DNA of 32,000 nt from Candidatus Saccharimonadota bacterium (GTDB lineage Archaea; Nanobdellota; Nanobdellia; Pacearchaeales; GW2011-AR1): the NCBI GenBank assembly GCA_041659445.1, contig JBAZYG010000001.1, positions 450,001 to 482,000 of the forward strand, read 5' to 3'. Positions 1,238 through 28,186 of this stretch are shown piece by piece. Position numbers and translations under genes: made by a program. Numbering within the stretch: position 1 is the first letter of the stretch; every line of letters starts with the position of its first letter. The notes under the pieces are model-generated. The model did no database searches. It was not told the DNA's origin and saw only the letters and a program-made list of their open reading frames with translations.

Positions 1238-1238
1238 T

Positions 1239-1718: not shown

Positions 1719-1740
1719 TAATTTACTACGTGTCAGTGAC

Positions 1741-1748
1741 TTTATAAA
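1741..1748 (-). promoter_or_regulatory. TATA-like box (palindromic TTTATAAA) for the 1718 start
   Basis: The 8-mer lies 30 nt upstream of the minus-strand ATG at 1718. The AT-rich background makes chance matches common. Confidence 0.35.
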
Positions 1749-1794
1749 TGTTTCGATTGTGTTGTTTCTTATAAGTGGGTACACTTTAGAAAAG

Positions 1795-1802
1795 TTTATA
1801 AA
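1795..1802 (+). promoter_or_regulatory. TATA-like box (TTTATAAA) for the 1824 gene
   Basis: The 8-mer begins 29 nt upstream of ATG 1824, and no SD-like GGAGG lies between them, so the mRNA is probably leaderless. Confidence 0.4.
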
Positions 1803-1823
1803 GAACTAGAAATAGAATAAGAT

Positions 1824-3184: not shown

Positions 3185-3192
3185 CTTCTCTT

Positions 3193-3477
3193 TTATTTTT
3201 TATTTTTGTAAATTATTTTATAAAAATCTTTGTAAGTCAAACCTTGAACAAAGATTCCTATTAATATTCCATAAATAAAATAATTATAGTATTTAAAAGC
3301 TATTAATATTATTAAAATTGCTAATGAAATAATCCAATGATGAATATGGATTTTATAATTTTTAAAATTAAATTTTAATGAACCTAAAATTCCTTTTTCA
3401 CCAGATTTTTTTCCAGATAATAAATAAGCAAAAATAAATCCTAAAACAAACCCTATTATAAAATAAGGATAATCCAT
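3193..3477 (-). CDS. Small membrane protein (94 aa, about 3 hydrophobic helices), function unknown
   Basis: Hydrophobic segments FIIGFVLGFIFAYLL, WIISLAILIILIAF and YGILIGIFVQGL, with a conserved-looking HIHHW. It lies between aCPSF1 and the protease gene on the same strand. Confidence 0.6.
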   Translation of the reverse strand: MDYPYFIIGFVLGFIFAYLLSGKKSGEKGILGSLKFNFKNYKIHIHHWIISLAILIILIAFKYYNYFIYGILIGIFVQGLTYKDFYKIIYKNKK

Positions 3478-3484
3478 ATTATTT

Positions 3485-5371: not shown

Positions 5372-5397
5372 TTTAGATTTATTAAATAAACATGAAA

Positions 5398-6081
5398 TTA
5401 TTCATCCTTGTAATCAGGTAAAATTCCTTGTGAAACCACTTTTTTAATTCCCTCTTTAGTTATTGTAAAAACATCAATTCCATAACCACTTCCTAAATCT
5501 CTTTGTGTTGAAGATTTTAAAGCTTCTTTTGCTAATTCAATTCCTTCTTTAACTGTTAACCCTTTTTTATATTGTCTTTCTAATAATCCTAAAACATAAG
5601 GCATACCGCTTCCAAAATTTGCATCATAATCTTCTACTTTATAAATTCCGCCAGCTGGCTCTATAGTATATAATTCTACTGAACCATCTTCATTAAACCC
5701 TCCAATCAAATTTCCTACAATATGTGGAATCATTGATGGTTGTCTTATTGAAGAGTATAACATAGTAGATAATAATCCTGCGGATTGTTTCACTGTAGGT
5801 CTAAACTTTGAACGCAATTCTTTAAGTTTTAACTCTGCAGGCAATAATTTTGCAACTCTTTGAGCATCAGCAACACTTCCTGTAAAAGATAATAATAAAT
5901 AATCGTTAATTTGAACTGTTTTTCTAAAATTCTTATCCATTACTAAATTTCCTGCAGTAACTTGTCTATCAGAAGCCATTACAACTCCGTCTTTGCAAAC
6001 AATTCCTAAAATAGTTGTTCCTGTTTTCAAGATTGATTTTTTTAATTCTTCGTCCATTTTAGATTTATTTTCTATATACAT
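5398..6081 (-). CDS. psmB: Proteasome beta subunit with propeptide
   Basis: 227 aa. The motif LKTG/TTILGIVCKDGVVMASDRQ has the catalytic Thr following a short propeptide, in a typical Ntn-hydrolase proteasome beta sequence. Confidence 0.92.
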   Translation of the reverse strand: MYIENKSKMDEELKKSILKTGTTILGIVCKDGVVMASDRQVTAGNLVMDKNFRKTVQINDYLLLSFTGSVADAQRVAKLLPAELKLKELRSKFRPTVKQSAGLLSTMLYSSIRQPSMIPHIVGNLIGGFNEDGSVELYTIEPAGGIYKVEDYDANFGSGMPYVLGLLERQYKKGLTVKEGIELAKEALKSSTQRDLGSGYGIDVFTITKEGIKKVVSQGILPDYKDE

Positions 6082-10710: not shown

Positions 10711-12195
10711 ATGAAATATAATATTCTTTTTGGAGGCCAGGCAGGACAAGGTCCAAATTTTTTAGCTCAAATACTTGGAAAAACTCTAATTGAAAAAGGA
10801 TTTTATGTATTTTTCTCAAGAGACTATCAATCTTTAATAAGAGGGGGACACAATTTTAATGTTTTGACTTTTTCAGACAAACCAGTTTTTAGTAATGAAA
10901 GTGAACTAGATTTAATTGTGGCTTTAGATAAAAAAACTTTGAATTTTCATCAAAAAAATTTGAAAAAAACTGGAATTATCATTGATGAAAATCCCTCAAA
11001 TGCAAATTTATCTGGAAAATTATTTAAAAAATTAGGTCTGGAATTTAAAGATCTTGAAAAACAATTAAAATCTCAAGATAAATTCAAAGAAAATTTGATT
11101 GAAGCAAAAAAAGGGTATGAATCTGAAACTGAATGGATTAAATTGAAAAACAACGGTAAAAAAAATTTAAATTTTTATAATGGGACACAGGCGATTGCAA
11201 AAGGAGCAATAGATTCTGGTTTAGATATTTATTATGCATATCCTATGACTCCTGCAACACCTTTGCTCGGAGAACTTGCTGAAAAATCAAAAGAGAAAAA
11301 TATTTTGGTTCTAGAATTGGAAAATGAAATTGGAATAATTAATGCTGCAATTGGCTCTTCGATAACTGGTGCGAAATCAATGATTGGAACTTCTGGCGGA
11401 GGTTTTGATTTAATGACTGAAGGATTGAGTTTGACGGGTATTGCTGAAATTCCGTTGGTAATTTATTTATCTCAAAGACCAGGACCTGGAACAGGAGTTG
11501 CAACTTACACTGCTCAAGGAGATTTAAACATTGCAAGACACGCAGGACATGGTGAATTTAATCGAATTGTTTTGGCCCCAGGAGATTCTAAAGAGTCTGT
11601 TGAATTAACAAATCAATGTTTTTATTTTTCTCAGAAATTTAAAATTCCAACAATTGTTTTAGGAGACAAACATTTAGCAGAAAGTTATTTTACTTTTGAA
11701 AAAAAACCAAAATTAACTTCAGTTTTAAAATCAACTGAATTAAAGAGATATAATAGTTATGAAAGTGATTCTGAAGAAAGTTCTACAGAAAACCCAGAAA
11801 TTATAATTAAAAATGTAAATAAAAGATTAAAAATAAAAGAAGAAATTGAAAAAGAATCTAAAAATTTTTCAACATACGAGATTCATGGAAACAAAAATTT
11901 AAAAAATCTAATTGTTTCTTGGGGTTCAACAAAAGGTGCAATTATCGACGCTATTAAAGATTTGAATTGTGGTTTTTTGCAAATAAAATATCTTGAACCT
12001 TTTCCAAAAATTGAAAATATGATTCAAGGAAAAAATTTAATTTTAATTGAAAATAATTCAACAGGACAACTAGGACAATTAATTTCAGAAAAAACAGGGA
12101 TTTTTATTTCAGACAAAAATAAAATTTTAAGGTTTGATGGAAGACCTTTTCTTTCAAATGAATTAAAATTAGAAATAAAAAAGAGGATGAGATGA
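10711..12195 (+). CDS. 2-oxoacid:ferredoxin oxidoreductase, fused gamma-alpha subunit
   Basis: The N-terminal ~150 aa are gamma-type (MKYNILFGGQAGQGPNFLAQILGK, RGGHN). The remainder is alpha-type (GTQAIAKGAIDSGLDIYYAYPMTPATP, GGGFDLMTEGLSLTG). An SD-like AAGAGGA lies upstream of the ATG. Confidence 0.85.
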   Translation: MKYNILFGGQAGQGPNFLAQILGKTLIEKGFYVFFSRDYQSLIRGGHNFNVLTFSDKPVFSNESELDLIVALDKKTLNFHQKNLKKTGIIIDENPSNANLSGKLFKKLGLEFKDLEKQLKSQDKFKENLIEAKKGYESETEWIKLKNNGKKNLNFYNGTQAIAKGAIDSGLDIYYAYPMTPATPLLGELAEKSKEKNILVLELENEIGIINAAIGSSITGAKSMIGTSGGGFDLMTEGLSLTGIAEIPLVIYLSQRPGPGTGVATYTAQGDLNIARHAGHGEFNRIVLAPGDSKESVELTNQCFYFSQKFKIPTIVLGDKHLAESYFTFEKKPKLTSVLKSTELKRYNSYESDSEESSTENPEIIIKNVNKRLKIKEEIEKESKNFSTYEIHGNKNLKNLIVSWGSTKGAIIDAIKDLNCGFLQIKYLEPFPKIENMIQGKNLILIENNSTGQLGQLISEKTGIFISDKNKILRFDGRPFLSNELKLEIKKRMR

Positions 12196-12410
12196 AAATA
12201 AATAAAAAAGAAAAAATATTATTTTGGAATGCTATTTTAGCAGGAATAATTGGGGGAGTTATAGGTAATTTCTGGGTAGGGTCTTATTTTAATATGGTTT
12301 CTCAAAATTATAATTGGATGAGCTTAACAACTTTTATCATATTTAGCTTAATCTTCTTAATAACAATAATCTTAGCTTCAAACATAATAAAAAAAATAAA
12401 TAAAAAATGA
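12192..12410 (+). CDS. Small 2-TM membrane protein (72 aa) embedded between the OFOR subunit genes
   Basis: ATGA overlaps at both ends (12192-12195 and 12407-12410), with GAGGA 5 nt upstream. Two hydrophobic helices (ILFWNAILAGIIGGVIGNFWVG and LTTFIIFSLIFLITIILASNII), Lys-rich termini and no Cys. Confidence 0.6.
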   Translation: MKINKKEKILFWNAILAGIIGGVIGNFWVGSYFNMVSQNYNWMSLTTFIIFSLIFLITIILASNIIKKINKK

Positions 12411-16472: not shown

Positions 16473-16751
16473 ATGAAACCACTCAAACCATCAATGCGAG
16501 AAGACAAAAGATATTTATTAATTTCTGGAGAAAACCTTAAAGAAGATGTGGTAAAATCTATTAAAGAATTTATTGGAATTTTAGGATTAGCAAAATCAAA
16601 TCTTTCTTTTATTGAATTAAAAAAAGATAAAGCCATAATTTGCGTTGATAGAAAATCTCTAAATCATGTTAAAGCTAGTTTTGCTATGTGTAATGAAAAA
16701 ATTGATGTTTTAAAAGTTAGTGGAACATTGAAAGGATTAAAAACTAATTAA
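16473..16751 (+). CDS. rnp2: RNase P protein component Pop5/Rpp14 homolog
   Basis: MKPLKPSMREDKRYLLI matches the conserved Pop5 N-terminus (LPPxLRxKxRY), in a small alpha/beta protein. The tracked ORF starts at a TTG (16455), but ATG 16473 fits both the homology and the TATA spacing. Confidence 0.72.
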   Translation: MKPLKPSMREDKRYLLISGENLKEDVVKSIKEFIGILGLAKSNLSFIELKKDKAIICVDRKSLNHVKASFAMCNEKIDVLKVSGTLKGLKTN

Positions 16752-19700
16752 AATATCCCCCATTCAGAAGAATATTCTTTACATAAATTATAATATTTCT
16801 TAAAGAATTCTCCAATTTTTGAGAAAATTTTCTTGAACAAACCTGGAGAATTGTCTTCTGAATTTGAATCTTGATTTGGTTGTTCTAATGAAAAATCACC
16901 CAAAACAATTTTTTCATCTAAAAGATTTTCTTGATCAACTACTACAAAAATTAAATTTCCATTAAATTTAGTATTATGCTTATCATAAGAAATTTTTAGC
17001 ACTTCATTTTCATTATTTAATTTAAAGAAATAATTTTCATGAATGCCTATGGAAAAAAATTGTGAATCTATAGAAAGATTTACAAAATTTTTATTTATAT
17101 CTAATATTTTTAAAATATAAGTATTATTTTCATAAAATAATTTTAAAGTATCATATTTAGAAACTTTTTGTTTTAATTCTTGGGTTGTTAAATTTAAATT
17201 TATTTTATTAAATGGCAACCCGCTCCCACCAGAAGTTGTTGTGACATCTTCACTACTTGAAGGAGTTTCCTCAGAAGAATAATTACTAAAAGATATTACA
17301 TCAAAAATAAAAGTTCCACCAGTATAAGAAACTTCTGTACAATCTGAACAAAAAACTCCGTCTTTTAAAGGTCTTGGATTTGTAAAAGTTAAATCATATA
17401 AAGTTATTCTTGCAGAAGCATTCAAAAAAGTTAAATTACTAGAATTTACGTATGCACTATTTAACCCTATAATTATATAATCATCTAAATTTGCACCTTC
17501 TTCAAGATTTACATTTTCTGAAAAATTAATTTTACCATAAGGATAATTATCAATTACAAAATTTGAAATTTCTGAAACATCTAAATCACTTAAATTAGTT
17601 GAATTTGTTGTAAAACCTTGAAACCTAAAAACAGATAAGTTGTTTGTTGAACTAAAATAAACTTCTGAATCATTATTTGTGCAATTTATACTCCAATTAT
17701 AATGACCAATTGCAAGATTATTCAATGTGAAATTTTGAGTAGTATCTTCGGTAATAGAAATATTTGTTGAATTCAAAATATTGTTTAAAATTAAAGAACA
17801 ATTTTCAATATTTACTCCTGAGTCTGAAACATTATAAGAAAAAGTTACATTTCCGTCAGAGTCTCCTTTTTTATTTCCTGGAGAAATTAATGTTACAACT
17901 GAAACATCTGCAACATTTGTAACATTTACCAAAAAACTATTTACTCCTGTTAAAAATAAAGAATCATATGCTGTGCAAGTAACATTTACTGAACCATAAA
18001 AATTATTTAAAGCTGTTATATTTAGCAATTTTGTTTCATTGTTAACTTCTGAAGTAAAATTTGTTTCATTATCTGAGCAAGTCCAATTAATTAAAGAATC
18101 AGCATCATCTATATCTAAAACATAATTTGATAAATTAATTGTAGAATTTGAATTACCTTCTTCTAATGTCATTAAATCTAAAGAAGAAAAATCTATATTT
18201 GGTGCAGAATTAGAAACAGTAGTATTTGTTAAATTTACAGCTGTGGAGTTTGCTGTTCCATCTCCTGTCCAAACTTCAAGAGTAATATTATCCCCAGCAT
18301 TATATTCAGAAGAATCAAATGTCGCAATTAAAGTGTTTGTATTGTTCGTCGCTGTTTGAGATTGAATTGTTGTATTTGGAGTGTTATTAACATACATTCT
18401 TACATAACCTGTTAAAGTATCTCCTAAATCAGGGTCTGTGATTGTTAAATTTACTAACAAACTAGTATTTGTGTAAACTGTTGCTGGACTTGTTGCATTT
18501 GCTATAATTGTTGGTGCAGTGTTTAAAACTGGAGCTAAATCTTTTAAAGGAAGATAGTCAATATTTCCAGTTGTGCAATTTGAACCTGCAATACAAGATG
18601 CATTTGTTTCAATATCATAAGCCAAATCACAAACACCATTAGCATTACTATCTGCACAAGTTTCAGAATAACCTGTTCCGTCGGGTTTTGCCCAAAAATT
18701 CCCACCATAAGCTAAATCCCCGACGATATTTCTTAAACTAGAATTAAAAGTAGTATTGAAAAGATTATCTGCACCAGTGCTACCAAATTTTACATTCAAA
18801 GAATTATTAAAGAAATTATTGTAAAAATAATTACTATCTGTTCCAAGTTGATTAAAAGTTACTCCTGCTGTTGTAGCATTAGTTAAATTATTATTATAAA
18901 TTTCACTTCCAATACTTGTTGAATCAATATAAATGTTAACTGCATTATTATAAATACTTGAATTGTAAATCCGAATATAATCTGGACTTGATTGTAAATA
19001 AAACCCATTTCCAGTATTACCATAAACTGTGCAATTTGAAAAATTAGAATAATTGCTAGTATAATATAAATGAAACCCGTGTGCTGTAGAATTAATAATA
19101 AAATTCTCAAATAAATTTCTATCCAACCCTTGCCTTAAATAAATTCCTGTAGTTAACGCAGAAGTAGAAGTAATATTAGAAAAATATGAATCTTGAACAA
19201 AATCAAAATACATAGAATATTGAAAATCATTAAATTTACAATTTTTTACAGTTAGATTTTTATACTCACTTCCTGCAGCAGTATCTGCAACAACACCATA
19301 CAAAACTGCATTCCCTCCATCAACTAAATGATTTTGACAATCTAAAGTTACATTACTTGAACTAATAGTAAAACATGTTGAACCAGAATCTGTAACGTCT
19401 GCTGTTAATAGGTATTCTCCTGGAAGATTTAAAGTAGCACATCCAGAAATTTCTCCCCCTCTTTGGACAATTGTGAAAGAATCCATATTTCCCGACGATA
19501 AAGTTGAAGTAAAAGTATAATTTATTGAATTTGTAGAAACTAAAGAACCTGAAGAATTGTAAACATCATGGTTTACTCCAATACTTTCAAAACTTATTGT
19601 TATATTTGTTAAATTATGATCATAATTGTTTGTCATATTACAAGTGTAATTTCCCTGTGAATTTTGTGAACAATTTACTTTTAAGTTCTGCCAATCTGTG

Positions 19701-20944
19701 ATTCCGTCTGCAGTATAACCTGTTCTATTTGAATCATGCCCAATTAAAGTATAATCTCCTGAACCTGTTCCAAAATCAAATGCATATAAATTTCCGTCGT
19801 CAGTTACAACATAAATATTTCCTTGAGCAATAGAAGTGTAACCAAAAACATCTTCATTGACATGATATTTCCAAATAAAATTTCCATTTGTTTCGTTTAT
19901 AGCATAAATGTAACCATCTCCGCCTGTAGCAGCGTCGCAACTAGCACATATCACATTAAAAAAAATCATTCCATTAGAAATTGCAGGTTGATTATAAATT
20001 GCATCAGTACCGTCGGCACCAGAATCATAAAATATCCATTTTTCAGTTCCATTCAAATAATAAGAATGTACTAAATCTGTGGTTGTTACTGTAGTTGTTT
20101 TTCCAATGAAAAAAACATCGTCGTGAACTGAAGGAGTACTTATAGTGTTAAAAGAGGCAGTATCCCAAACAACTGAACCATTTTCAAGATACCTTGATAA
20201 TAAAAGTGGTCCTCCTGCAGAAGAACCAATAAAAATTTGATTGTTATATAAAATTGGAGAACTATCCCAAAAAGTTCCTTCATCTCTTGCCCAAAGTTGA
20301 GTTCCTGTTGTAATATTATATGCTGCTAAATCTTCATTTGTTTCAGAATTTGATGTTGCAATAATTAAATATTCTCCATACAATAAAGGCTCTGCAGCAA
20401 TTGCGGCTGTTCCAACTCCAATAGTGTCATTCCATATGTAAGCTCCTGTTGTTCTATTTAAAACAACAAATGTATTTGAAGCATATGAAATCGCAATTAA
20501 ATAATTTTCATCTAATGCAACACCTTGAGAAAATTTCATTGCTGTTGGACTTGTATAATTCCAAATTTGAATTCCTGTTGTAGAATTTATTGCCCACACA
20601 TTATTAAAAGAATTATAAATAGTTCCGTTGTAATAAACAGGCCCTCCGAAACCAGTCAATCCTGCTCCAGAATTTCCAACATCAAATTCCCATATAATAC
20701 TTCCATTTGTTGCATTAACTGCATAAGTTTTATTATCTCGTCGTGAATTTACAAACAAAGTATCGTTTGCATAAACTGCAATTGCCTGTTCGTCATAAGT
20801 TCCTGTAACATTTGCTGTCCAAAGCAATTCATGACCATAAGTAGTTCTAGATGTATTCAAATCAACTAAAACAGAAGTTGCAGAAATACTTGGAAGAATT
20901 AACAAAGAAATTAATAAAACAAAAAAGAAGAAATTTTTTTTCAT
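16748..20944 (-). CDS. Giant secreted surface protein (1398 aa): signal peptide, PQQ-like beta-propeller, right-handed beta-helix (NosD/PbH1-like), Asn/Ser/Thr-rich Ig-like region and an unknown C-terminal domain
   Basis: Signal peptide MKKNFFFFVLLISLLILPSISA. There are about 7-8 propeller blades with (T/N)G..(I/L)W motifs (about nt 20840-19750). A beta-helix has repetitive N..(F/I).N..G(F/I).L units and GGNFWAKPDGTGYSETCADSNANGVCD (about nt 19440-18560). Dozens of N-x-S/T sequons follow. Coordinates within the protein are approximate. Confidence 0.8.
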   Translation of the reverse strand: MKKNFFFFVLLISLLILPSISATSVLVDLNTSRTTYGHELLWTANVTGTYDEQAIAVYANDTLFVNSRRDNKTYAVNATNGSIIWEFDVGNSGAGLTGFGGPVYYNGTIYNSFNNVWAINSTTGIQIWNYTSPTAMKFSQGVALDENYLIAISYASNTFVVLNRTTGAYIWNDTIGVGTAAIAAEPLLYGEYLIIATSNSETNEDLAAYNITTGTQLWARDEGTFWDSSPILYNNQIFIGSSAGGPLLLSRYLENGSVVWDTASFNTISTPSVHDDVFFIGKTTTVTTTDLVHSYYLNGTEKWIFYDSGADGTDAIYNQPAISNGMIFFNVICASCDAATGGDGYIYAINETNGNFIWKYHVNEDVFGYTSIAQGNIYVVTDDGNLYAFDFGTGSGDYTLIGHDSNRTGYTADGITDWQNLKVNCSQNSQGNYTCNMTNNYDHNLTNITISFESIGVNHDVYNSSGSLVSTNSINYTFTSTLSSGNMDSFTIVQRGGEISGCATLNLPGEYLLTADVTDSGSTCFTISSSNVTLDCQNHLVDGGNAVLYGVVADTAAGSEYKNLTVKNCKFNDFQYSMYFDFVQDSYFSNITSTSALTTGIYLRQGLDRNLFENFIINSTAHGFHLYYTSNYSNFSNCTVYGNTGNGFYLQSSPDYIRIYNSSIYNNAVNIYIDSTSIGSEIYNNNLTNATTAGVTFNQLGTDSNYFYNNFFNNSLNVKFGSTGADNLFNTTFNSSLRNIVGDLAYGGNFWAKPDGTGYSETCADSNANGVCDLAYDIETNASCIAGSNCTTGNIDYLPLKDLAPVLNTAPTIIANATSPATVYTNTSLLVNLTITDPDLGDTLTGYVRMYVNNTPNTTIQSQTATNNTNTLIATFDSSEYNAGDNITLEVWTGDGTANSTAVNLTNTTVSNSAPNIDFSSLDLMTLEEGNSNSTINLSNYVLDIDDADSLINWTCSDNETNFTSEVNNETKLLNITALNNFYGSVNVTCTAYDSLFLTGVNSFLVNVTNVADVSVVTLISPGNKKGDSDGNVTFSYNVSDSGVNIENCSLILNNILNSTNISITEDTTQNFTLNNLAIGHYNWSINCTNNDSEVYFSSTNNLSVFRFQGFTTNSTNLSDLDVSEISNFVIDNYPYGKINFSENVNLEEGANLDDYIIIGLNSAYVNSSNLTFLNASARITLYDLTFTNPRPLKDGVFCSDCTEVSYTGGTFIFDVISFSNYSSEETPSSSEDVTTTSGGSGLPFNKINLNLTTQELKQKVSKYDTLKLFYENNTYILKILDINKNFVNLSIDSQFFSIGIHENYFFKLNNENEVLKISYDKHNTKFNGNLIFVVVDQENLLDEKIVLGDFSLEQPNQDSNSEDNSPGLFKKIFSKIGEFFKKYYNLCKEYSSEWGIF

Positions 20945-21123
20945 TTTATATTTAACTCCTTTTTTATTTTCAAAATTTCTTCTGCTTCTGAAATTTTTTT
21001 CAAGGCATTGTTTAGAAAATTAGAAACAGCAGGTTGAGTAATTTTTAATTTTTTAGCAATTTCTAATTGAGTCATATTCTTGTTTTTAAGTTCCAAAACT
21101 TCTCTCTCTTTTTCTGTTAGCAT
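20941..21123 (-). CDS. Small HTH DNA-binding protein (60 aa; Tfx / LuxR / sigma-70 region-4-like)
   Basis: LTEKEREVLELKNKNMTQLEIAKKLKITQPAVSNFLNNALKKI is a classic region-4-type HTH. Its stop overlaps the start of the giant surface-protein gene (ATGA). Confidence 0.7.
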   Translation of the reverse strand: MLTEKEREVLELKNKNMTQLEIAKKLKITQPAVSNFLNNALKKISEAEEILKIKKELNIK

Positions 21124-21237: not shown

Positions 21238-21714
21238 ATGAAACTCGATAAAAAAATTTGTATAAAAGATTATACAAAGTTTGAGCCAAGCGAAATTTAT
21301 GAAATGGCGAGACATATTGCAATTACTAAAGGACATGTTTCAATTGGATTAAATGATAAAAAAAACATTGGAGATTCAATAATCCATATTTTTTCAAATG
21401 TTCCAAAAAACAATATAAACATTATTCACACATTAGAAGAACCAAAAATTAAAATCGCAAATCATCAAGAACTTGTTAACATTATAAATGACCTTCCAAT
21501 GGGAGAAATAAAAATTTATAACCAATGGCCTGTCAAATTAATTCTTAGTTCAAATGAGATACATGAAGGAGAATTATTATTCCATCAATTAACAGAGGAT
21601 CCTCTGACAAATAATAAATTTTTATTTGGAAAATGGATTCTGAAATTGGTTGAATTATATAAACACTCAATAGCTCAACCAAAGACTGACCCAAGATATG
21701 AGCCTTTTAGGTAA
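21238..21714 (+). CDS. Hypothetical protein (158 aa) immediately upstream of psmA
   Basis: ATG ORF on the same strand as the exosome superoperon. No motif recognised. Confidence 0.55.
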   Translation: MKLDKKICIKDYTKFEPSEIYEMARHIAITKGHVSIGLNDKKNIGDSIIHIFSNVPKNNINIIHTLEEPKIKIANHQELVNIINDLPMGEIKIYNQWPVKLILSSNEIHEGELLFHQLTEDPLTNNKFLFGKWILKLVELYKHSIAQPKTDPRYEPFR

Positions 21715-21799
21715 AGTTTATAAAATAAATTTTACTCCAAAAAGTTTAAAAACTAGTAATTTTTCTAAAAATAGAGAAGAAAAGAAAAAGAAATTAAGA

Positions 21800-21807
21800 T
21801 TATTAAA
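21800..21807 (+). promoter_or_regulatory. TATA-like box (TTATTAAA) for psmA
   Basis: Begins 27 nt upstream of ATG 21827. A second TTTATAAA at 21717-21724 is an alternative candidate. Confidence 0.3.
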
Positions 21808-21826
21808 TTCTCACAAAAAACATAAA

Positions 21827-22549
21827 ATGGAAATGCCTATAGATATGCAACACCAACAAATGGGGTATGATAGAACTGCTACAATGTTTACTCCTGAAGG
21901 ACATTTATTACAGGTAGAGTATGCTGAAAAAGCAGTAAGACTTGGAAGTTCAAGTATTGGAATGGTTTGCTCTGATGGGGTTTTTATACTTTCTGATAAA
22001 AGAAATGAAGACAAATTAATTGTTCCAAGTTCTGCGAACAAAATTCATGAAATTGATGAACACATAATTGTAAGTATCGCAGGAATTGTTTCAGATGCAA
22101 GAGTTTTAATTGACAGGTCCCAAGTTTTAGCACAGCAACATCGAGTAACTTATGATTCTCCTATTGAAATTGAAACAGTTATAAAAGAAATTTCAAACTT
22201 AAAACAACAATTTAGCCAGTATGGTGGTGCAAGACCTTTTGGTGTTTCATTAATGCTTGCTGGAGTTTACAACAAAAAATTCCAACTTTACACAAGTTAT
22301 GTAACTGGAAATTATTTTGAATATTATGCAAATGCTATTGGAGAAAATGACGAAAAAATAAGAGATAAATTAAAAGAAGTATATAAAAAAGATTTAACAA
22401 TTAAAAAAGGCGTGAAAATTGCTTTAGATATTTTTAAAGAAATTCAAGGACAAAAATTTGATATAGACAGGTTTGAACTTGTTTATCTTTCAAAAGAACA
22501 TGAAAAAATGCAAAGACTTGAAGGAAATAAAATTAACGAATTAAAATGA
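21827..22549 (+). CDS. psmA: Proteasome alpha subunit
   Basis: QMGYDRTATMFTPEGHLLQVEYAEKA is the canonical alpha N-terminus. The ORF is open from ATG 21698, but those 43 extra residues (K/N-rich) have no alpha-subunit counterpart and overlap the previous gene, so I call ATG 21827 as the start. Confidence 0.88.
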   Translation: MEMPIDMQHQQMGYDRTATMFTPEGHLLQVEYAEKAVRLGSSSIGMVCSDGVFILSDKRNEDKLIVPSSANKIHEIDEHIIVSIAGIVSDARVLIDRSQVLAQQHRVTYDSPIEIETVIKEISNLKQQFSQYGGARPFGVSLMLAGVYNKKFQLYTSYVTGNYFEYYANAIGENDEKIRDKLKEVYKKDLTIKKGVKIALDIFKEIQGQKFDIDRFELVYLSKEHEKMQRLEGNKINELK

Positions 22550-22558
22550 ACGAATTAA
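22535..22558 (+). repeat. 14-nt tandem duplication AACGAATTAA-AATG-AACGAATTAA spanning the psmA stop and the next start
   Basis: Exact 10-mer AACGAATTAA at 22535-22544 and at 22549-22558, separated by AATG. The first copy encodes NELK-stop and the second encodes (M)NELR. Confidence 0.85.
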
Positions 22559-22710
22559 GAGACAAATTAAAAAAATTAGGAATTGATTATGAAAGTTTTG
22601 AAAGAAGAACAAGAATTTATGAATTAGCAAGAGAAGCAGAAGAAAGAACAAGATTAGAAGAAATGAATAAACTCGAGGAGGATATTATTATACAATACTT
22701 AAAAAATTAA
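22546..22710 (+). CDS. Un-tracked small ORF (54 aa), highly charged and helical; possible split-off C-terminal tail of PsmA
   Basis: ATG 22546 overlaps the psmA TGA (ATGA). Translation is MNELRDKLKKLGIDYESFERRTRIYELAREAEERTRLEEMNKLEEDIIIQYLKN, with TAA at 22708-22710 followed by A-ATG of the next gene. It exactly fills the otherwise unexplained 162-nt gap. Confidence 0.5.
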   Translation: MNELRDKLKKLGIDYESFERRTRIYELAREAEERTRLEEMNKLEEDIIIQYLKN

Positions 22711-22711
22711 A

Positions 22712-22975
22712 ATGACAATCAAAAAATATCAATTTAATAATTATGCCTATGGAACATTTTGCAGTGAATTCAGGGAAAATATTGTAGAGAAAAGAGAATT
22801 TGATAAAGGATTTTACAACTATAGTATTTTTAATATAAATAATACCACTGTAACTTTAATGAAAATGGGAACAAATTCAAAAAAAGTTTTAACAATAGGA
22901 TTGAATGAAAAAGAAATAGATAAAACTATTAAATTAATTAAATCAAAAGGATTTCAATTAGAGGAAATAATTTAA
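22712..22975 (+). CDS. Paralog 1 (87 aa) of an unrecognised small-protein family, upstream of SBDS
   Basis: Homologous to the ORFs at 24361 and 25362. The C-terminus IDKTIKLIKSKGFQLEEII matches IKKVVKSIKSKGFSLEEIN at 13/19 residues, and it shares SEF...GF..Y motifs. TAA-A-ATG junctions on both sides. Confidence 0.7.
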   Translation: MTIKKYQFNNYAYGTFCSEFRENIVEKREFDKGFYNYSIFNINNTTVTLMKMGTNSKKVLTIGLNEKEIDKTIKLIKSKGFQLEEII

Positions 22976-22976
22976 A

Positions 22977-23648
22977 ATGACTAACACTACTGCGAGAATA
23001 AAGAAAAACGGAATTAATTTTGAAATTCTTGTAGACATGGACAACGCATTAAAATTCAGAAAAGGTGAAATTAATTTTATCAACGCTGAAGGAGACAAAA
23101 TATTTTCAGATGTAAAAAAAGGTACTGCTTCATCAAAAGATGATTTAGAAATTGCTTTTAACACTACTGATACTGATGAAATTGCAAAAGTGATTGTAAA
23201 ACACGGAGACGTTTTAGTTAATCAAGAACATAGAGACGAGGAAAAAGAAAAAAGAATAAGACAAGTTGTTGATTTTTTATCAAAAAATGCTATAGACCCT
23301 AAGACAGGACATCCACATTCTCCGAATAGAATAAGAGATGCACTAGAACAAGCACATGTTAACATAAAAAATGTTCCTATTGAAAATCAAATTTCAGAAA
23401 TTTTAGAACACATTGCAAAACTAATTCCAATAAAAATTGAAACAAAGAAAATAAAAGTTAGAATTCCTGCAATACAAACTGGAAAAGCTTATGGAATTGT
23501 AAGCCAATATAAAGGAAGCGAAAAGTGGCTTGAAAACGGAGATTTAGAAACTATTGTTGAAATTCCTGCTGGCATGATTTTGGATTTTTATGATAAATTA
23601 AACTCAATAACACACGGAAGTGCCTTAACAGAGGAAATAAAACAATAA
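22977..23648 (+). CDS. SBDS-family ribosome maturation protein (Sdo1 homolog)
   Basis: 223 aa. The N-terminus (ARIKKNGINFEILVDMDNALKFRKGE) and overall length and pattern are typical of archaeal SBDS, and it holds the canonical superoperon position. Confidence 0.85.
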   Translation: MTNTTARIKKNGINFEILVDMDNALKFRKGEINFINAEGDKIFSDVKKGTASSKDDLEIAFNTTDTDEIAKVIVKHGDVLVNQEHRDEEKEKRIRQVVDFLSKNAIDPKTGHPHSPNRIRDALEQAHVNIKNVPIENQISEILEHIAKLIPIKIETKKIKVRIPAIQTGKAYGIVSQYKGSEKWLENGDLETIVEIPAGMILDFYDKLNSITHGSALTEEIKQ

Positions 23649-23658
23649 AAACGAAAGA

Positions 23659-23666
23659 CATATAAA
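23659..23666 (+). promoter_or_regulatory. TATA-like box (CATATAAA), candidate internal promoter for rrp4
   Basis: Lies in the only real gap of the operon (39 nt) and begins 29 nt upstream of ATG 23688. No SD-like element. Confidence 0.35.
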
Positions 23667-23687
23667 CTAAAAATAAGACAAACTAAA

Positions 23688-24359
23688 ATGACAGAAAATA
23701 AAAGAAGAGCAGCAATACCTGGAGAGATAATCGCCGAAGGCGAAGAATATTTACCTGGAGAAAATACTGAAAAAAGAAATAATAAAATTTATTCTTTGAG
23801 ATATGGATTAATTGAAGAATCAAACAACCTTGTAAGAATAATTCCTTTATCAGGAATTTACGAACCTCGACGAGGAAATGTAGTTATAGGAAAAGTAGAA
23901 TTAGTTACATTCAATGGATGGGTTATTGATATTGGAACCTCTCAAAATGCTTTTTTGAGTTTATCTGAAGTACCAAGATTTGTTAACAAAGATGAAATAG
24001 ACGAAGTAATGGACATTGGAGATATGGTTATGATAAAAATTGTTTCATCAAACAAAAGAGGAATTGATGCTACAATAAAAGGAAGAGGACTTGGAAAAAT
24101 AGAAGAAGGAATTATTTTTGATATTAACTCACATAAAGTTCCAAGAGTAATAGGAAAAGAAGGAAGCATGATTAAATTAATAAAAGACGAGACAAATGCA
24201 AATGTCAGCGTCGGACAAAATGGTAAAATCTGGATAAAAGGAGACAAAGTTGAAGAAGAACTTTTAGCAAAAAAAGCAATAATGTTCATATCAGAAAGAT
24301 CTTTTATTTCTGGATTAACTGAAGAAGTAATTAAATGGTTCAACGAGAGGAAAAAATAA
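23688..24359 (+). CDS. rrp4: Exosome cap subunit Rrp4 (N-terminal domain, S1 and KH)
   Basis: S1 domain (GNVVIGKVELVTFNGWVIDIGTSQNAFLSLSEV) and KH domain (VPRVIGKEGSMIKLIKDETNANVSVGQNGKIWIKG). Confidence 0.9.
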   Translation: MTENKRRAAIPGEIIAEGEEYLPGENTEKRNNKIYSLRYGLIEESNNLVRIIPLSGIYEPRRGNVVIGKVELVTFNGWVIDIGTSQNAFLSLSEVPRFVNKDEIDEVMDIGDMVMIKIVSSNKRGIDATIKGRGLGKIEEGIIFDINSHKVPRVIGKEGSMIKLIKDETNANVSVGQNGKIWIKGDKVEEELLAKKAIMFISERSFISGLTEEVIKWFNERKK

Positions 24360-24373
24360 AATGACAACAAAAA
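24357..24373 (+). repeat. 17-nt direct repeat, copy 1 (TAAAATGACAACAAAAA) at the rrp4/paralog-2 junction
   Basis: Exact match to 24646-24662. It covers the stop codon, the 1-nt spacer and the first four codons (MTTK). Confidence 0.85.
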
Positions 24374-24648
24374 ATTATAATATCTTTTTAAAAGAAGACT
24401 TGAATTTGAAGCAGTGTTATAGCGAATTTTTTGGAAATTACAGGGATTACATAAAAAAAATTGGAGATGGCTTTACTACCTATGATTTTAAAGATACTGC
24501 AATAATTTTATTTGGAAACTTAACAGACATAAAACAAATTAGAACAAAGGGCGTTAATAATTTGCATTTAATTGGAACAGAAGATAATATTAAAAAAGTT
24601 GTTAAAAGTATAAAATCAAAAGGATTTTCATTGGAGGAAATAAATTAA
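24361..24648 (+). CDS. Paralog 2 (95 aa) of the unrecognised small-protein family, upstream of rrp41
   Basis: See paralog 1. It shares GVNNLHL with GVNTLNL of paralog 3, and YSEFFGNY with YEEFYDTY. GGAGGA lies in its last codons, 11 nt before the rrp41 ATG. Confidence 0.7.
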   Translation: MTTKNYNIFLKEDLNLKQCYSEFFGNYRDYIKKIGDGFTTYDFKDTAIILFGNLTDIKQIRTKGVNNLHLIGTEDNIKKVVKSIKSKGFSLEEIN

Positions 24649-24662
24649 AATGACAACAAAAA
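24646..24662 (+). repeat. 17-nt direct repeat, copy 2 (TAAAATGACAACAAAAA) at the paralog-2/rrp41 junction
   Basis: Exact match to 24357-24373, with the copies spaced 289 nt apart. Confidence 0.85.
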
Positions 24663-25360
24663 CATTCAAAAGACCAGACGGAAGAAAACCTGAAGAATTA
24701 AGACCAATAAAAGCAAAAGTTGGAATTATCCCAAATGCCGACGGAAGTGCAATGTATCAATCAGGAGACACAATCGCGATTGCTGCAGTTTATGGTCCAA
24801 GAAAAATGCATCCGCAACATCAGCAAGATCCGAAAAAAGCTCAATTAAGATGCACTTACAATATGTTAAGTTTCTCAGTTAATGATAGAATTAAACCTGG
24901 AACTAGTAGAAGAAGCACTGAAATTAGTAAAATAACTGAATGGGCTTTAGAACCTGTTTTAATTTTAGACAAATTCCCAAATATGGTTGTAGATGTTTTT
25001 ATCCAAATAACTCAAGCAGACGCAGGAACAAGATGCGCAGGAATAAATGCAGCTTCAATGGCTCTTGCTCATGCAGGAATTCCAATGAAAAATCTTATAA
25101 CTAGTGTTTCTGTTGGAAAATTAGATAAAAATTTAGTTGTTGATTTAACTAAAGAAGAAGAAGATTTTGAAGAAGGAGAAGGACCTACAGACATTCCTGT
25201 TTCAATGACTCCAGAAGGAGAAATAACACATTTACAATTAGACGGAAAAATAAGTCCAACTCAATTAAAAGAAGCAATTGACATGGCAAAAAAAGCTTGT
25301 AATCAAATTTATGAAATTCAAAAAGAAGCTTTAACAAAATCAATAGAGGAAAAAGGATAA
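24650..25360 (+). CDS. rrp41: Exosome RNase PH-ring catalytic subunit Rrp41
   Basis: RPDGRKPEELRPIKAKVGIIPNADGSAMYQSGDTIAIAAVYGP is the canonical RNase PH domain 1 signature; 236 aa. Confidence 0.92.
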   Translation: MTTKTFKRPDGRKPEELRPIKAKVGIIPNADGSAMYQSGDTIAIAAVYGPRKMHPQHQQDPKKAQLRCTYNMLSFSVNDRIKPGTSRRSTEISKITEWALEPVLILDKFPNMVVDVFIQITQADAGTRCAGINAASMALAHAGIPMKNLITSVSVGKLDKNLVVDLTKEEEDFEEGEGPTDIPVSMTPEGEITHLQLDGKISPTQLKEAIDMAKKACNQIYEIQKEALTKSIEEKG

Positions 25361-25361
25361 A

Positions 25362-25646
25362 ATGACATATAGAGAATATATCTTAGGTTCAAAAGAGAAA
25401 AATTTAGAAGAAACTTATGAAGAATTTTATGATACTTACTGGAAGAATAGGCATGCACATTATCATCTTTATAACGATGCTTTATTAGAAGTTTATGATA
25501 TAAAAGATGTTTCAGTATTAGTGAATCAAGGTGTAAATACCTTGAATTTGGTAAATCTTAAGATGATTGGATTAGAAAATCTAATTGACGAAGTTGAAAA
25601 AGATATAATCAAAAATAAATTTAAATTAAAAAGAGTAACTAAATAA
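25362..25646 (+). CDS. Paralog 3 (94 aa, most divergent) of the unrecognised small-protein family, upstream of rrp42
   Basis: Shares YEEFYDTY, GVNTLNL and a C-terminal amphipathic helix (IDEVEKDIIKNKFKL) with paralog 2. TAA-A-ATG junctions on both sides. Confidence 0.65.
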   Translation: MTYREYILGSKEKNLEETYEEFYDTYWKNRHAHYHLYNDALLEVYDIKDVSVLVNQGVNTLNLVNLKMIGLENLIDEVEKDIIKNKFKLKRVTK

Positions 25647-25647
25647 A

Positions 25648-26457
25648 ATGACAAACGGAAGCACAACACCATCAACAAATAGAGAAAGAATAAATGAATA
25701 CTTAAAAAATGGAAAAAGATTTGACGAGAGAAAACCAGAAGAGTTTAGAGAAATAATTATTGAAAAAAATGTTTCAAAAAAAGCAGAAGGTTCTGTTAAA
25801 GTAAAAATGGGAAACACTGAAGTTTTAGTTGGAATCAAAATGGGAGTTTCAGAACCATATCCTGATTCTTTGGATGAAGGTGTTTTAATGACAACTGCAG
25901 AATTATTGCCTTTAAGTTCTGAGAGATTTGAAAACGGACCTCCAAAATTTCCAGCAATAGAATTAGGAAGAGTTATTGACAGAATTTTAAGAGAAAGTAA
26001 ATTTATTGATTTAAAAAAATTATGCATTGAAAAAGGTAAGAAGGTTTGGACTGTTTTTGTAGACATATATTCTTTAAATGACGACGGAAATTTACTAGAT
26101 GCTGCTGGAATCGGAGCTGTTGTTGCATTAAGAAATGCGGTACTTCCAAAATATGATGAAAAAGAAGGTAAAATTAATTATGATGAACCTTCAAAAACAA
26201 AATTACCTTTAAGTAAAAGCACACCAATCTCAATAACAATTCATAAAATTGGAAATTCTTTGCTTACAGATCCAACAAGAGAAGAAGAAGACATTAGTGA
26301 AACAAGAGTAACTATTGGAATGATGGATAATTCAATTTCATCAATGCAAAAAGGAGAATCACAAATTCTAACAATTGATGAAACTAAAAAAATAATTGAC
26401 ATGGCTGAAAAAGTTCATGAAAAGGTTTTAAAAAGTATAAACAAATATTTAGATTAA
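25648..26457 (+). CDS. rrp42: Exosome RNase PH-ring subunit Rrp42
   Basis: NGKRFDERKPEEFREIIIEKNVSKKAEGSVKVKMGNTEVLVGIK, in a 269-aa RNase PH-like protein at the canonical position after rrp41. Confidence 0.9.
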   Translation: MTNGSTTPSTNRERINEYLKNGKRFDERKPEEFREIIIEKNVSKKAEGSVKVKMGNTEVLVGIKMGVSEPYPDSLDEGVLMTTAELLPLSSERFENGPPKFPAIELGRVIDRILRESKFIDLKKLCIEKGKKVWTVFVDIYSLNDDGNLLDAAGIGAVVALRNAVLPKYDEKEGKINYDEPSKTKLPLSKSTPISITIHKIGNSLLTDPTREEEDISETRVTIGMMDNSISSMQKGESQILTIDETKKIIDMAEKVHEKVLKSINKYLD

Positions 26458-26458
26458 A

Positions 26459-26839
26459 ATGCAAGCAGAAAAATTTACAAAATACGAAAAAGCAAGAATT
26501 CTTGGGGCAAGGGCTTTACAAATTGCAATGAATGCTCCTTTATTAATTAAAATCAGCAATGAAGATTTGGAAAAAATAAAATTTGATGCGTTGAAAATTG
26601 CAGAAATTGAATTAAGTTCTGATGTTTTACCAATTTCAATTAAAAAACCATTTCCACAGAAAAAAGAAGAACAACTAAAGAGACCTAAACCTGTAATAAT
26701 TACTGAAGAAAAGAAAGAAGAAACTGAATCTGAAGAAGAAAAAGAAATAATCGAAGAAGGCGAAATCATGGAATTAGCAGAACCTGAAGAAGAAAAAGAA
26801 GATTTTGCCGAAGATGATTCTAGTGGTGGGGAAGAATAA
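26459..26839 (+). CDS. rpoK: RNA polymerase subunit K (Rpo6/Rpb6 homolog) with a ~60-aa acidic C-terminal extension
   Basis: The core FTKYEKARILGARALQIAMNAPLLI ... LPISIKKP matches RpoK. Residues from about 65 to 126 are an E/K/D-rich tail ending in DDSSGGEE. Confidence 0.85.
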   Translation: MQAEKFTKYEKARILGARALQIAMNAPLLIKISNEDLEKIKFDALKIAEIELSSDVLPISIKKPFPQKKEEQLKRPKPVIITEEKKEETESEEEKEIIEEGEIMELAEPEEEKEDFAEDDSSGGEE

Positions 26840-26842
26840 AAC

Positions 26843-26849
26843 TTTTTTT
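26843..26849 (+). terminator. Oligo-T tract (T7), candidate terminator of the superoperon
   Basis: TTTTTTT begins 4 nt after the rpoK TAA and is followed by a 180-bp gap, the largest gap on this strand. Confidence 0.4.
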
Positions 26850-26991
26850 AAATTAAATGTATTTGCCCATTTTGTTTTTATTTATTTTAAACCTCCAATC
26901 TTGAGATAAATTAATTATTTTTGATTTTTCAGGATGAAGCTCTAATTTTAATTTACTTTCAAAGAAGTAACAAAATACCTTAAACAAAAAC

Positions 26992-26999
26992 TTATAAAT
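26992..26999 (+). promoter_or_regulatory. TATA-like box (TTATAAAT, preceded by an A-rich BRE-like run) for eno
   Basis: Begins 28 nt upstream of ATG 27020. No SD-like element. Confidence 0.4.
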
Positions 27000-27019
27000 T
27001 TAGGATTTCTTTTTATTTC

Positions 27020-28186
27020 ATGATAATAAAAGAAGTGAGTGCCAAATCTATTTTGGATTCACGAAAAGACAAAACAATTCTTGTTAAAATTAAAACAAAC
27101 GTTGGTGATTTTTCAAGTTCCGCGCCAAACGGAAAATCCAAGGGAAAGCACGAAGCAAAACCATATAAAAAATCTCTTGAAAAAGACATTGAAACTTTGA
27201 AAAAATTTAAAGATTATTTTTCAAAAGAACATCTTGACAAATTTGATGATTTGCGAAGGATTGAAGATATTATAAAAAATGAAATTGGAGCAAACACTCT
27301 TTTTGCTTTGGAGTCTGCTTCATTAAAAGCAATTGCAAAAGAACAAAAAAAAGAAATCTGGCAAATAATTAATGAAAACGCAAAAAAAATACCCAGATTT
27401 CTTGGAAATTGTATAGGTGGTGGAATGCATAGTAATGAAAAATCTAGTTTAGATAAAAAACCAGATTTCCAAGAATTTTTATTAATTCCAAATGAAAATT
27501 CTGCAATTGAAAATTTCAAAAAATTGAAATCTGGAAAAGAAGATTCAGAAATCTTCTTGAAAAAATTAGATTCAAATTTCAAATCCAGAAAAAATGATGA
27601 AGATGCATGGAATACTTCGTTAGATGACAAAAGAGTTTTAGAAATTTTAGTAAAATTAAATATTTCTTTGGGTTTAGATGTTGCTTCTTCAAGCTTTTGT
27701 AAAAGAAAAAAATATCGATATGAAAATCCAAAATTAGATAGAACTTCAGAAGAGCAAATGGGTTATTTATCAAATTTAATAAAAAATTTTAACATTTTTT
27801 ATGTAGAAGATCCATTTAATGAAGAAGATTTTGAAAGTTTTTCAAAGCTTTTACAAAAGTTTCCAAAGACTTTAATTGCCGGAGATGATTTAACAGTAAC
27901 AAATCTTAAAAGATTGAAAAAAGCAATTGATGAAAAAAGCATAAATGCATTAATTGTAAAACCAAACCAAAATGGCTCGCTTTTTGAAGTCAAGGAAATA
28001 TGCGAAATTGCAAAGAAAAATAACATTAAAATTATTTTTTCACATAGAAGCGGAGAAACAGAAGAAAAAATTCTTTCAGATTTGGCTTTTGGGTTTGAAG
28101 CAGATTTTTTAAAATGCGGAATTACAGGAAAAGAAAGAGAAGTCAAAATAAAAAGATTAATTGAAATTGAAAAAAGTTTGAAATGA
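27020..28186 (+). CDS. eno: Enolase (divergent, 388 aa)
   Basis: Conserved motifs SHRSGETE, VKPNQNGS, GDDLTVTN, VEDPF, QEF and LDVASS. The N-terminal loop is APNGKSKGKHEA rather than the usual PSGASTG..EA, and NDEDAWN replaces GDEGGFAP. Confidence 0.8.
   Translation: MIIKEVSAKSILDSRKDKTILVKIKTNVGDFSSSAPNGKSKGKHEAKPYKKSLEKDIETLKKFKDYFSKEHLDKFDDLRRIEDIIKNEIGANTLFALESASLKAIAKEQKKEIWQIINENAKKIPRFLGNCIGGGMHSNEKSSLDKKPDFQEFLLIPNENSAIENFKKLKSGKEDSEIFLKKLDSNFKSRKNDEDAWNTSLDDKRVLEILVKLNISLGLDVASSSFCKRKKYRYENPKLDRTSEEQMGYLSNLIKNFNIFYVEDPFNEEDFESFSKLLQKFPKTLIAGDDLTVTNLKRLKKAIDEKSINALIVKPNQNGSLFEVKEICEIAKKNNIKIIFSHRSGETEEKILSDLAFGFEADFLKCGITGKEREVKIKRLIEIEKSLK

Follow-up and report, generated by a model that had tools for sequence, protein, structure and literature searches.

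The gene order psmA-SBDS-rrp4-rrp41-rrp42 is regarded as one of the most conserved arrangements in archaeal genomes; in the description by Koonin, Wolf and Aravind the core genes of this superoperon are reportedly contiguous, and their contiguity is said to have been used for the prediction of the archaeal exosome. Analysis of a stretch of 32,000 nucleotides (nt) of contig JBAZYG010000001.1 (assembly GCA_041659445.1; hereafter the window) revealed that three small open reading frames (ORFs), named F1, F2 and F3 (Table 1), are placed between these genes. They are real protein-coding paralogs of an undescribed family which, as the loci of related genomes show, has settled in the operon junctions and moves from one to another.

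Archaeal exosomes can carry cap and accessory subunits, namely Rrp4, Csl4 and DnaG. Cluster 2 DPANN, to which the lineages considered here belong, are devoid of the cap subunit Csl4, and a structurally or functionally different exosome has been suggested for them (Dombrowski et al., PMC7414124); this difference was reported in 2020, and no explanation for it was found in the literature searched. Literature searches on small proteins of the DPANN exosome superoperon likewise found no description of the present family. By size and fold class, the closest described kind are stand-alone proteins with a single TATA-binding protein (TBP) domain found in Thermococcales, which are mostly 91-97 amino acids (aa) long and whose function is unknown (Brindefalk et al. 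2013, PMC3597702).

The homology of the three ORFs had been proposed from the letters of the DNA and a list of translated ORFs, in what is called here the sequence-only reading, which placed each of them one nucleotide ahead of a core gene, SBDS, rrp41 and rrp42 respectively. The ORFs do lie on the + strand at the coordinates and with the lengths proposed, the 1-nt spacing holds and is found on the upstream side too, and the identity of the three neighbours is confirmed by Pfam. The motifs quoted as shared are present as well, and 13 of the last 19 residues are identical between F1 and F2. Pairwise BLASTP comparison by itself is suggestive (E = 5e-8 for F2 versus F3, 0.006 for F1 versus F2 and 0.04 for F1 versus F3); a profile hidden Markov model (HMM) built exclusively from homologs of other genomes matches just F1, F2 and F3 among the 224 window ORFs of at least 40 aa, with E values of 1.7e-24 for F2, 4.6e-21 for F1 and 1.2e-20 for F3, thus removing the doubt on their homology. 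F3 is a divergent member, which is lacking the KSKGF-LEE motif.

When 5.8 billion proteins were searched by word index, 28 of them matched at E <= 1, F1-F3 included, and a full HMMER scan of 1.84 billion cluster representatives gave 64 matches at E <= 1e-3; 63 of them are credible, all 85-119 aa long, and the 64th (P0074, 642 aa) is a repeat-rich protein that was discarded as spurious. The named sources of the members are Pacearchaeota, Woesearchaeota and the unclassified DPANN 'archaeon GW2011_AR19'; members are so far known only from Pacearchaeota/Woesearchaeota-type DPANN archaea. Member ORFs are intact across 25-65% identity and their consensus reads M-x-T-K-N-Y-x-L ... Y-x-x-F ... Y-D-I-N-N-x-A-V-I-L ... 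G-N-L-x-L-I-G ... I-K-S-K-G-F-x-L-E-E-I. The sequence-only reading had recognised no known family in these ORFs, and profile searches agree: F1-F3 have no above-threshold match in Pfam or NCBIfam; searches with F1-F3 and 71 members in Pfam, NCBIfam, PADLOC and PHROGs gave chance-level, non-recurrent matches only; and the best match of the family profile among all PDB sequences is a de novo designed protein, at E = 0.08. Among the 71 members, the best recurrent Pfam matches in hmmscan at E <= 1 are Ski2_beta-barrel (3 members) and NIL (2 members), and TBP (PF00352) is not among the 25 families listed of the 64 with matches. The NIL domain, an ACT-like ferredoxin fold, was considered and rejected: F2 reaches 17.7 bits versus a cutoff of 24, 2 of 71 members match, and the query TM-score (TMq) in Foldseek to 2qsw is 0.34.

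Genomic context was compared in 33 loci (designated by the prefix L), retrieved by searching with the family itself, annotated with the family HMM and the core proteins of the window, and corresponding to 18 non-redundant lineages, the window and one contig known by its gene list included. In 15 of the 18 lineages the family is found inside the psmA-SBDS-rrp4-rrp41-rrp42 superoperon (19 copies) and in the other three it is found elsewhere (4 copies); residence in this operon is therefore overwhelming, but an association with exosome genes in every genome, raised as a question by the sequence-only reading, does not hold. A copy lies upstream of SBDS in about 10 lineages, at SBDS/rrp4 in 2, at rrp4/rrp41 in 6 and at rrp41/rrp42 in 1, which is the window alone among the loci with DNA. 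The copies per operon are one, two or three (one contig possibly has more), and in one contig about 10 small ORFs are interleaved from psmA to rpoK, including three successive ORFs of 107-108 aa. The sequence-only reading had seen in the three paralogs an echo of the three-fold symmetry of the exosome ring; since close relatives hold one, two or many more inserts, the number three is incidental and the argument fails.

No other junction insert approaches the family in frequency: it has 22 members, versus one other recurrent small ORF, which is present at two loci. This other ORF is Cys-rich, encodes 44-54 aa with the motif CNECTE.(Y/H)C(V/L)CER, and occupies the SBDS/rrp4 junction in L026 (8943-9107) and L028 (3355-3489). 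The possibility that other small junction ORFs are divergent members was discarded, as the family HMM gives no match at E < 1 in L026, L028 and L012, or at E < 10 in L027 and L030-L032.

Relocation is indicated by the distribution of the subfamilies. F1 shares 65% aa and 80% nt identity with the copy at rrp4/rrp41 of L001, and F2 shares 55-58% aa identity with P0013 and P0016, which are encoded at psmA/SBDS. Indeed, the F1 type is found at rrp4/rrp41 in L001 and L002 and upstream of SBDS in the window, and the F2 type at psmA/SBDS in L008 and L012 and at rrp4/rrp41 in the window; thus, the two types are swapped in the window relative to its relatives. Since the subfamilies are not tied to particular junctions, it follows that copies change place as exact ORF-sized cassettes. 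The homology found by blastn between relocated copies, 70-80% at the nucleotide level, extends from about 10 nt before the ATG to about 7 nt past the stop, and these limits indicate that the moved unit consists of the ORF plus the junction consensus. Empty sites are also available: the rrp4/rrp41 junction of L012 reads ...GAAAAAATAAAATGACAACAAAAACATTC, a site taken in the window by F2, which has a copy of TAAAATGACAACAAAAA on each side, and the psmA/SBDS junction is empty in L015 and holds a copy in L024. Filled and empty sites among close relatives, with discrete edges of the insert, are the behaviour of a mobile cassette; the data agree well with the alternative that the sequence-only reading offered, namely a cassette spreading into operon junctions, since subfamilies do not follow junctions and homology does not extend past the ORF and its junction consensus.

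These data also bear on the mode of movement. A selfish homing cassette, whose protein is or recruits a site-specific nuclease, so that empty TAAAATGAC junctions are cut and the cassette is copied into them by repair, would agree with the presence/absence polymorphism at precise junctions, with the ORF size of the relocated units, and with the repeats flanking F2 in the window (17 nt) and the copy of L024 (a 21-nt direct repeat, 90% identical, at 4077-4097 and 4372-4392, with the psmA 3' end as one of its two copies). However, these repeats do not clearly exceed the similarity that any two junctions share, and 1-nt-gap junctions occur at other gene boundaries of the window too, yet the copies are nearly confined to one operon. 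Neither a conserved His/Asp/Glu constellation nor a nuclease family was found in Pfam, PDB, PADLOC and PHROGs, with no consistent match to LAGLIDADG, GIY-YIG, HNH or PD-(D/E)xK domains; one member matches a PHROG HNH family at 6e-5, and the other 70 give no support. No family member is present on viral contigs, and homing endonucleases are not known to be as small as the 85-119 aa of this family. A homing cassette is thus considered very unlikely. For the same reason of background similarity the flanking repeats were not taken as evidence of target-site duplication; as all operon junctions look alike, they are the likely substrate of unequal or illegitimate recombination and not a proof of transposition. 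The family protein of L024 ends in ...EKIKEI before the stop, as does the psmA tail, its orthologs ending in ...LEEIK (L023) and ...LEELK (L016). In L021, a contig of 1.15 kilobases (kb), a fragment downstream of the second copy (1093-1152) encodes RLEGEKIKEI and a stop, that is the psmA C-terminal tail, with TAAAATG directly after it; the fragment stems either from junction recombination or duplication, of which it would be a scar, or from chimeric assembly.

The inserts are closely integrated in the expression signals of the operon. Nearly all operon junctions across the clade (L001-L032) are either the 1-nt gap TAAAATG or an ATGA overlap, and the uniformity of this grammar, with GAGGA placed before the starts, is striking. 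In the family, the C-terminal F-x-L-E-E-I is encoded 10-14 nt ahead of the next ATG, where TTR-GAG-GAA contains GAGGA. In 8 of 17 copies GAG is the codon for the first Glu in the terminal LEE, versus 12 of the 180 Glu codons in the core genes of the window (binomial estimate p ~5e-6, not corrected for relatedness), and the C-terminal conservation may partly be a constraint at the DNA or messenger RNA (mRNA) level. Similar GAGGA elements are present 10-14 nt before the next start at the 3' ends of rrp4 and rrp41; since these elements stand at the 3' ends of both inserts and core genes, the inserts both obey and supply the coupling grammar of the operon. As had been proposed, F1-F3 share the strand of the exosome, SBDS and proteasome genes, to which 1-nt gaps couple them tightly; given the TAAAATG junctions within the run, and the 3' ends that often encode GAGG for the next gene, they are almost certainly co-transcribed and translationally coupled with these genes. 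This arrangement could be taken further: the family would be an operon-resident cassette with stop-start junctions as its ends and with C-terminal codons serving as the ribosome-binding site of the next gene, which for these reasons could be inserted, duplicated or excised at any junction without upsetting coupling; it would spread by recombination, and its protein would be an interchangeable cap or adaptor that diversifies the substrates of the Csl4-less exosome. We consider this full scenario improbable, although far from negligible.

Evolutionary rates were estimated by the Nei-Gojobori method on same-position orthologs at matched synonymous divergence (dS). The ratio of non-synonymous to synonymous rates (dN/dS) of the family is 0.61 for the pair L023/L024 (59% aa identity), 0.75 for L016/L023 (58%) and 0.62 for L015/L021 (48%), versus 0.084, 0.090 and 0.126 for SBDS of the same pairs (91.5%, 91.9% and 75.8% aa identity). 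In the pair L023/L024, with a dS of 0.46 (family gene) and 0.47 (SBDS), the family has accumulated non-synonymous changes about 7 times as fast (dN 0.28, versus 0.04 for SBDS). Despite this fast rate, ORFs are intact, the fold is confidently predicted and the motifs are invariant; this is the pattern of an accessory protein that is loosely constrained or under diversifying pressure, and not of an obligate core subunit. With regard to the candidacy of these proteins as accessory subunits, advanced by the sequence-only reading, a dN/dS of 0.61-0.75 versus 0.08-0.13 for SBDS would be unusual for an obligate stoichiometric one.

AlphaFold2 models, built with a 27-sequence alignment, are confident for both F2 (pLDDT 92.6, pTM 0.83) and F1 (pLDDT 88.5, pTM 0.78). 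They have in common a beta-alpha-beta4-alpha-beta two-layer sandwich, with one additional short helix in the beta4-beta5 loop of F2. No structural match was obtained by Foldseek at E <= 0.001 (two models versus PDB, one versus BFVD). For both models, the best non-significant neighbours are TBP-like (helix-grip) domains, with a best E of 0.06 and TMq of 0.40-0.66: the OGG1 N-terminal domain, TBP itself (TMq 0.40-0.47), Iml3/CENP-L and CENP-N, the platform of the beta2-adaptin appendage (0.56) and Roco COR (0.66). The predicted topology agrees with the TBP-like beta-alpha-beta4-alpha arrangement, but the Foldseek superpositions are at E >= 0.06. Structure prediction, which the sequence-only reading had recommended, provides confident models whose TBP-like neighbours are weak and none significant. 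No catalytic-looking constellation of residues is conserved in the family; the conserved loops of the fold carry DINN, GN and KSKG. The absence of catalytic-looking conserved residues, together with a TBP-like sandwich with conserved loops, points to a putative non-enzymatic binding module.

Profiles and models also bear on a possible descent of the family from superoperon proteins, as degenerate or detached domains of the core proteins next to it or of further members such as Pop5/Rpp14, Csl4 or Pcc1. The canonical superoperon does have several small proteins, and Pop5, whose gene is present in the window at 16473-16751 (+), is similar in size to the F proteins. However, hhalign comparison with the profiles of psmA, SBDS, Rrp4, Rrp41, Rrp42, RpoK, enolase and Pop5 gives probabilities below 1% (0.9% for Pop5), which led us to reject derivation from the co-operonic proteins or Pop5; no RNase PH, S1/KH or S1/Zn-ribbon domain was found in the family by Pfam and NCBIfam, or by hhalign versus Rrp4, Rrp41 and Rrp42. 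In addition, no domain is missing from the core proteins, which are full length, Pop5 is encoded separately, and Foldseek retrieves none of these folds. Among the explanations considered, this is the one to which we give the least credit.

What the F proteins do we infer from sequence comparison and predicted models, and the following is proposed tentatively. They are candidates for an exchangeable, lineage-specific, non-enzymatic cofactor of the machine encoded by the operon. Copies of the family have undergone duplication, loss and transfer from one junction to another as exact ORF-sized units, and in most lineages the family has stayed in the operon; relocation would occur via unequal or illegitimate recombination between near-identical junction sequences, which would explain why movement is mostly local. 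The protein would be made from the same mRNA as its partner machine and would bind it as an accessory, not as an obligate core subunit. The most plausible partner would be the Csl4-less DPANN exosome, at its cap or ring, or else SBDS and the ribosome; the exosome is attractive because Cluster 2 DPANN are without Csl4.

Nearly as likely as this cofactor is an operon hitch-hiker similar to a phage 'moron', namely a fast-evolving accessory gene whose function is unrelated to exosome, SBDS or proteasome and may concern, for example, conflict between symbiont and host or with viruses. The operon would have been chosen for its strong constitutive expression and for its uniform junctions, which tolerate seamless insertion, and the association would be due to local duplication and vertical inheritance. 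Many observations weigh against the cofactor and agree with such a gene. The rate of the family, with dN/dS several times that of its neighbours, exceeds what is usual for a protein that binds highly conserved surfaces. The number of copies varies from 1 to 3 or more, with up to about 10 small inserts in one contig, and the family keeps to no fixed junction. Apart from the Cys-rich ORF, the remaining junction inserts of the relatives are unrelated singleton ORFans at the same junctions. Members occur at other loci within the same clade: two copies in L030, in a small-ORF array downstream of trmB and about 2-3 kb from psmB and aCPSF1; one divergent copy in L033, between the S19e and L31e genes; and one copy in L029, adjoining a nucleotidyltransferase gene on a 2.2-kb contig. 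The hosts all belong to a fairly narrow clade, with core genes 68-90% identical at the nucleotide level over aligned stretches, and since they are fairly close, residence in the operon could be inherited from a single ancestral insertion and need not be upheld by function. Three further points count against the cofactor: the family is far narrower than the loss of Csl4; the isoelectric point of its members spans 4.8-9.6, giving no consistent signature of a nucleic-acid binder; and the 17-nt repeat around F2 does not clearly exceed the exact runs of up to 15 nt shared by unrelated junctions in an ATG-anchored comparison.

On the other side, an unrelated hitch-hiker does not easily account for a family that provides most of the junction inserts and is kept in one operon down to 25-30% identity, nor for outside contexts that include a ribosomal-protein gene cluster (L033) and a site close to psmB/aCPSF1 (L030). 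No match was found in defence (PADLOC) or viral (PHROGs, BFVD, IMG/VR) collections, the hits to anti-phage and viral families in PADLOC and PHROGs being scattered, single-member and at chance level. A viral origin was rejected, as no relative is found on IMG/VR contigs and no structural match in BFVD. The cofactor remains the explanation that we tentatively prefer. Overall, the observation made by the sequence-only reading is confirmed, and its proposal of exosome or ribosome-biogenesis subunits is supported in part, by residence in the operon; symmetry and strict linkage do not support it, and the exosome link is not exclusive.

The window is AT-rich, with a G+C content of about 27%, and the stretch 21698-26839 (+) is an unbroken gene run, as deduced from the ORF list, Pfam and NCBIfam (Table 1).

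Table 1. Genes and 3' elements of the superoperon in the window, with the spacing of the inserted ORFs.
Feature	Position	Strand	Start, length or profile match	Context and remarks
psmA (proteasome alpha)	21698-22549	+	Pfam Proteasome E = 1.4e-44	
54-aa ORF, predicted helical	22546-22710	+		Between psmA and F1; not related to the family
F1	22712-22975	+	ATG start, 87 aa	Between 54-aa ORF and SBDS; short subfamily; 1 nt (TAA-A-ATG) on either side, 22710/22712 and 22975/22977
F1 conserved 3' end and junction	22907-22981	+		Encodes IKSKGFxLEEI; GAGGA Shine-Dalgarno-like element 10-14 nt ahead of next ATG
SBDS	22977-23648	+	Pfam SBDS_N, SBDS_domain_II, SBDS_C	
rrp4 (exosome cap: N-terminal, S1, KH domains)	23688-24359	+	Pfam	
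F2	24361-24648	+	ATG start, 95 aa	Between rrp4 and rrp41; 1 nt (TAA-A-ATG) on either side, 24359/24361 and 24648/24650
F2 conserved 3' end and junction	24580-24654	+		Repeat partner of 22907-22981, 76% identity over 75 nt
rrp41 (RNase PH ring subunit)	24650-25360	+	Pfam RNase_PH E = 1.1e-32	Rrp41 of relatives is the best match
F3	25362-25646	+	ATG start, 94 aa	Between rrp41 and rrp42; divergent member; 1 nt (TAA-A-ATG) on either side, 25360/25362 and 25646/25648
rrp42 (RNase PH ring subunit)	25648-26457	+	Pfam RNase_PH E = 3.5e-31	
rpoK (RNA polymerase subunit K/Rpb6)	26459-26839	+	NCBIfam NF002208 E = 4.9e-20	Closes the tightly coupled run

The run has two exceptions to TAA-A-ATG, the ATGA start/stop overlap between psmA and the 54-aa ORF and a 39-nt spacer between SBDS and rrp4, and all seven consecutive genes from F1 to rrp42 open with ATGAC (Met-Thr). 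GenBank has F1, F2 and F3 on a contig of 486,529 bp from a Candidatus Pacearchaeota metagenome-assembled genome, where they are entered as hypothetical proteins (WC812_03255, WC812_03270 and WC812_03280). The 54-aa ORF encodes a charged, probably helical protein; it has no match in Pfam and no homolog in the other collected loci, whose small ORFs of 55 aa between psmA and SBDS (L004) and of 60 aa between SBDS and rrp4 (L001) are unrelated to it. The psmA ORF encodes 283 aa, versus 235-240 aa in all relatives, and overlaps a preceding 158-aa ORF by 17 nt; its true start is probably about 44 codons into the ORF, at a Met pair (KMEMPID...), and such a start would free about 110-120 nt as a possible site for the operon promoter.

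The Pop5/Rpp14 gene normally lies directly upstream of psmA. In the window it is kept apart from it (region 16473-21123) by an interval that holds, on the opposite strand, a gene for a 1398-aa Asn/Ser/Thr-rich protein (16748-20944), with a hydrophobic N-terminus that is probably a signal peptide, and a gene for a 60-aa helix-turn-helix protein; the 158-aa ORFan is also found there. On the downstream side, a divergent and short enolase homolog (27020-28186, 388 aa, 209.8 bits versus the NCBIfam equivalog cutoff of 300) has the same position in all relatives. The rpoK-enolase interval is no more than a 180-nt gap in the window (26840-27019), and in three relatives it contains RVT_1 reverse-transcriptase genes on the opposite strand (L008 13896-14897, L031 10312-11853, L032 9030-9482). 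The block psmB - aCPSF1/FttA - signal peptide peptidase - trmB at 96-6081 (- strand) is syntenic with L030 2113-8677, the aCPSF1 proteins being 70% identical; downstream of trmB the window runs off its left edge, and the 32 visible codons (MTEKIKCYRFTSSL...) are not obviously those of a family member. A hydrophobic 72-aa ORF (12192-12410) lies between two pyruvate:ferredoxin oxidoreductase genes with a 4-nt overlap on each side, and the same slot is filled in relatives by a 121-aa ORF or an acetyltransferase gene; small operon inserts may thus be a general habit of these genomes. An Rfam scan of the window found no RNA element.

Compared with the archaeal exosome-proteasome superoperon, the locus keeps the order psmA-SBDS-rrp4-rrp41-rrp42, with Pop5 upstream and rpoK downstream; it differs since here and in relatives up to four junctions are filled by one small paralogous family. 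Compared with the exosome cap and accessory subunits, the F proteins are encoded with, and coupled to, rrp4, rrp41 and rrp42, and a host clade without Csl4 leaves room for a replacement cap or adaptor (PMC7414124); conversely, S1, KH and zinc-ribbon domains are absent from the family, its rate of evolution is about 7-fold that of the core genes, its copy number and position vary, and not all Csl4-less DPANN have it. Should its members prove to bind the exosome, Cluster 2 DPANN would have in them the first candidates for a lineage-specific cofactor of an exosome without Csl4; being small and soluble-looking, they make this idea testable by heterologous co-expression.

The free-standing homing endonuclease genes and 'morons' of phages resemble the family as gene-sized inserts at exact gene boundaries of a conserved order, patchy among close relatives and fast-evolving. 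Unlike them, the family sits in an essential cellular operon, has no nuclease domain, moves almost wholly within one operon keeping translational coupling, and has no apparent promoter or terminator of its own (the scan used bacterial models, and the host is archaeal). If its proteins do not bind the exosome, the locus would offer a clean natural example of accessory genes that enter an essential coupled operon and are shuffled in it without breaking coupling. Finally, the family shares with the single-TBP proteins of Thermococcales the archaeal origin, the stand-alone state, a length of about 90-97 aa and, as predicted, the beta-alpha-beta4-alpha sandwich; it differs from them by an extra C-terminal strand, the IKSKGFxLEE motif, another genomic context and the lack of a significant match, so that the resemblance is one of size and fold class and does not extend to membership by sequence. 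Nevertheless, the family may extend the short list of single-domain, stand-alone TBP-like proteins.

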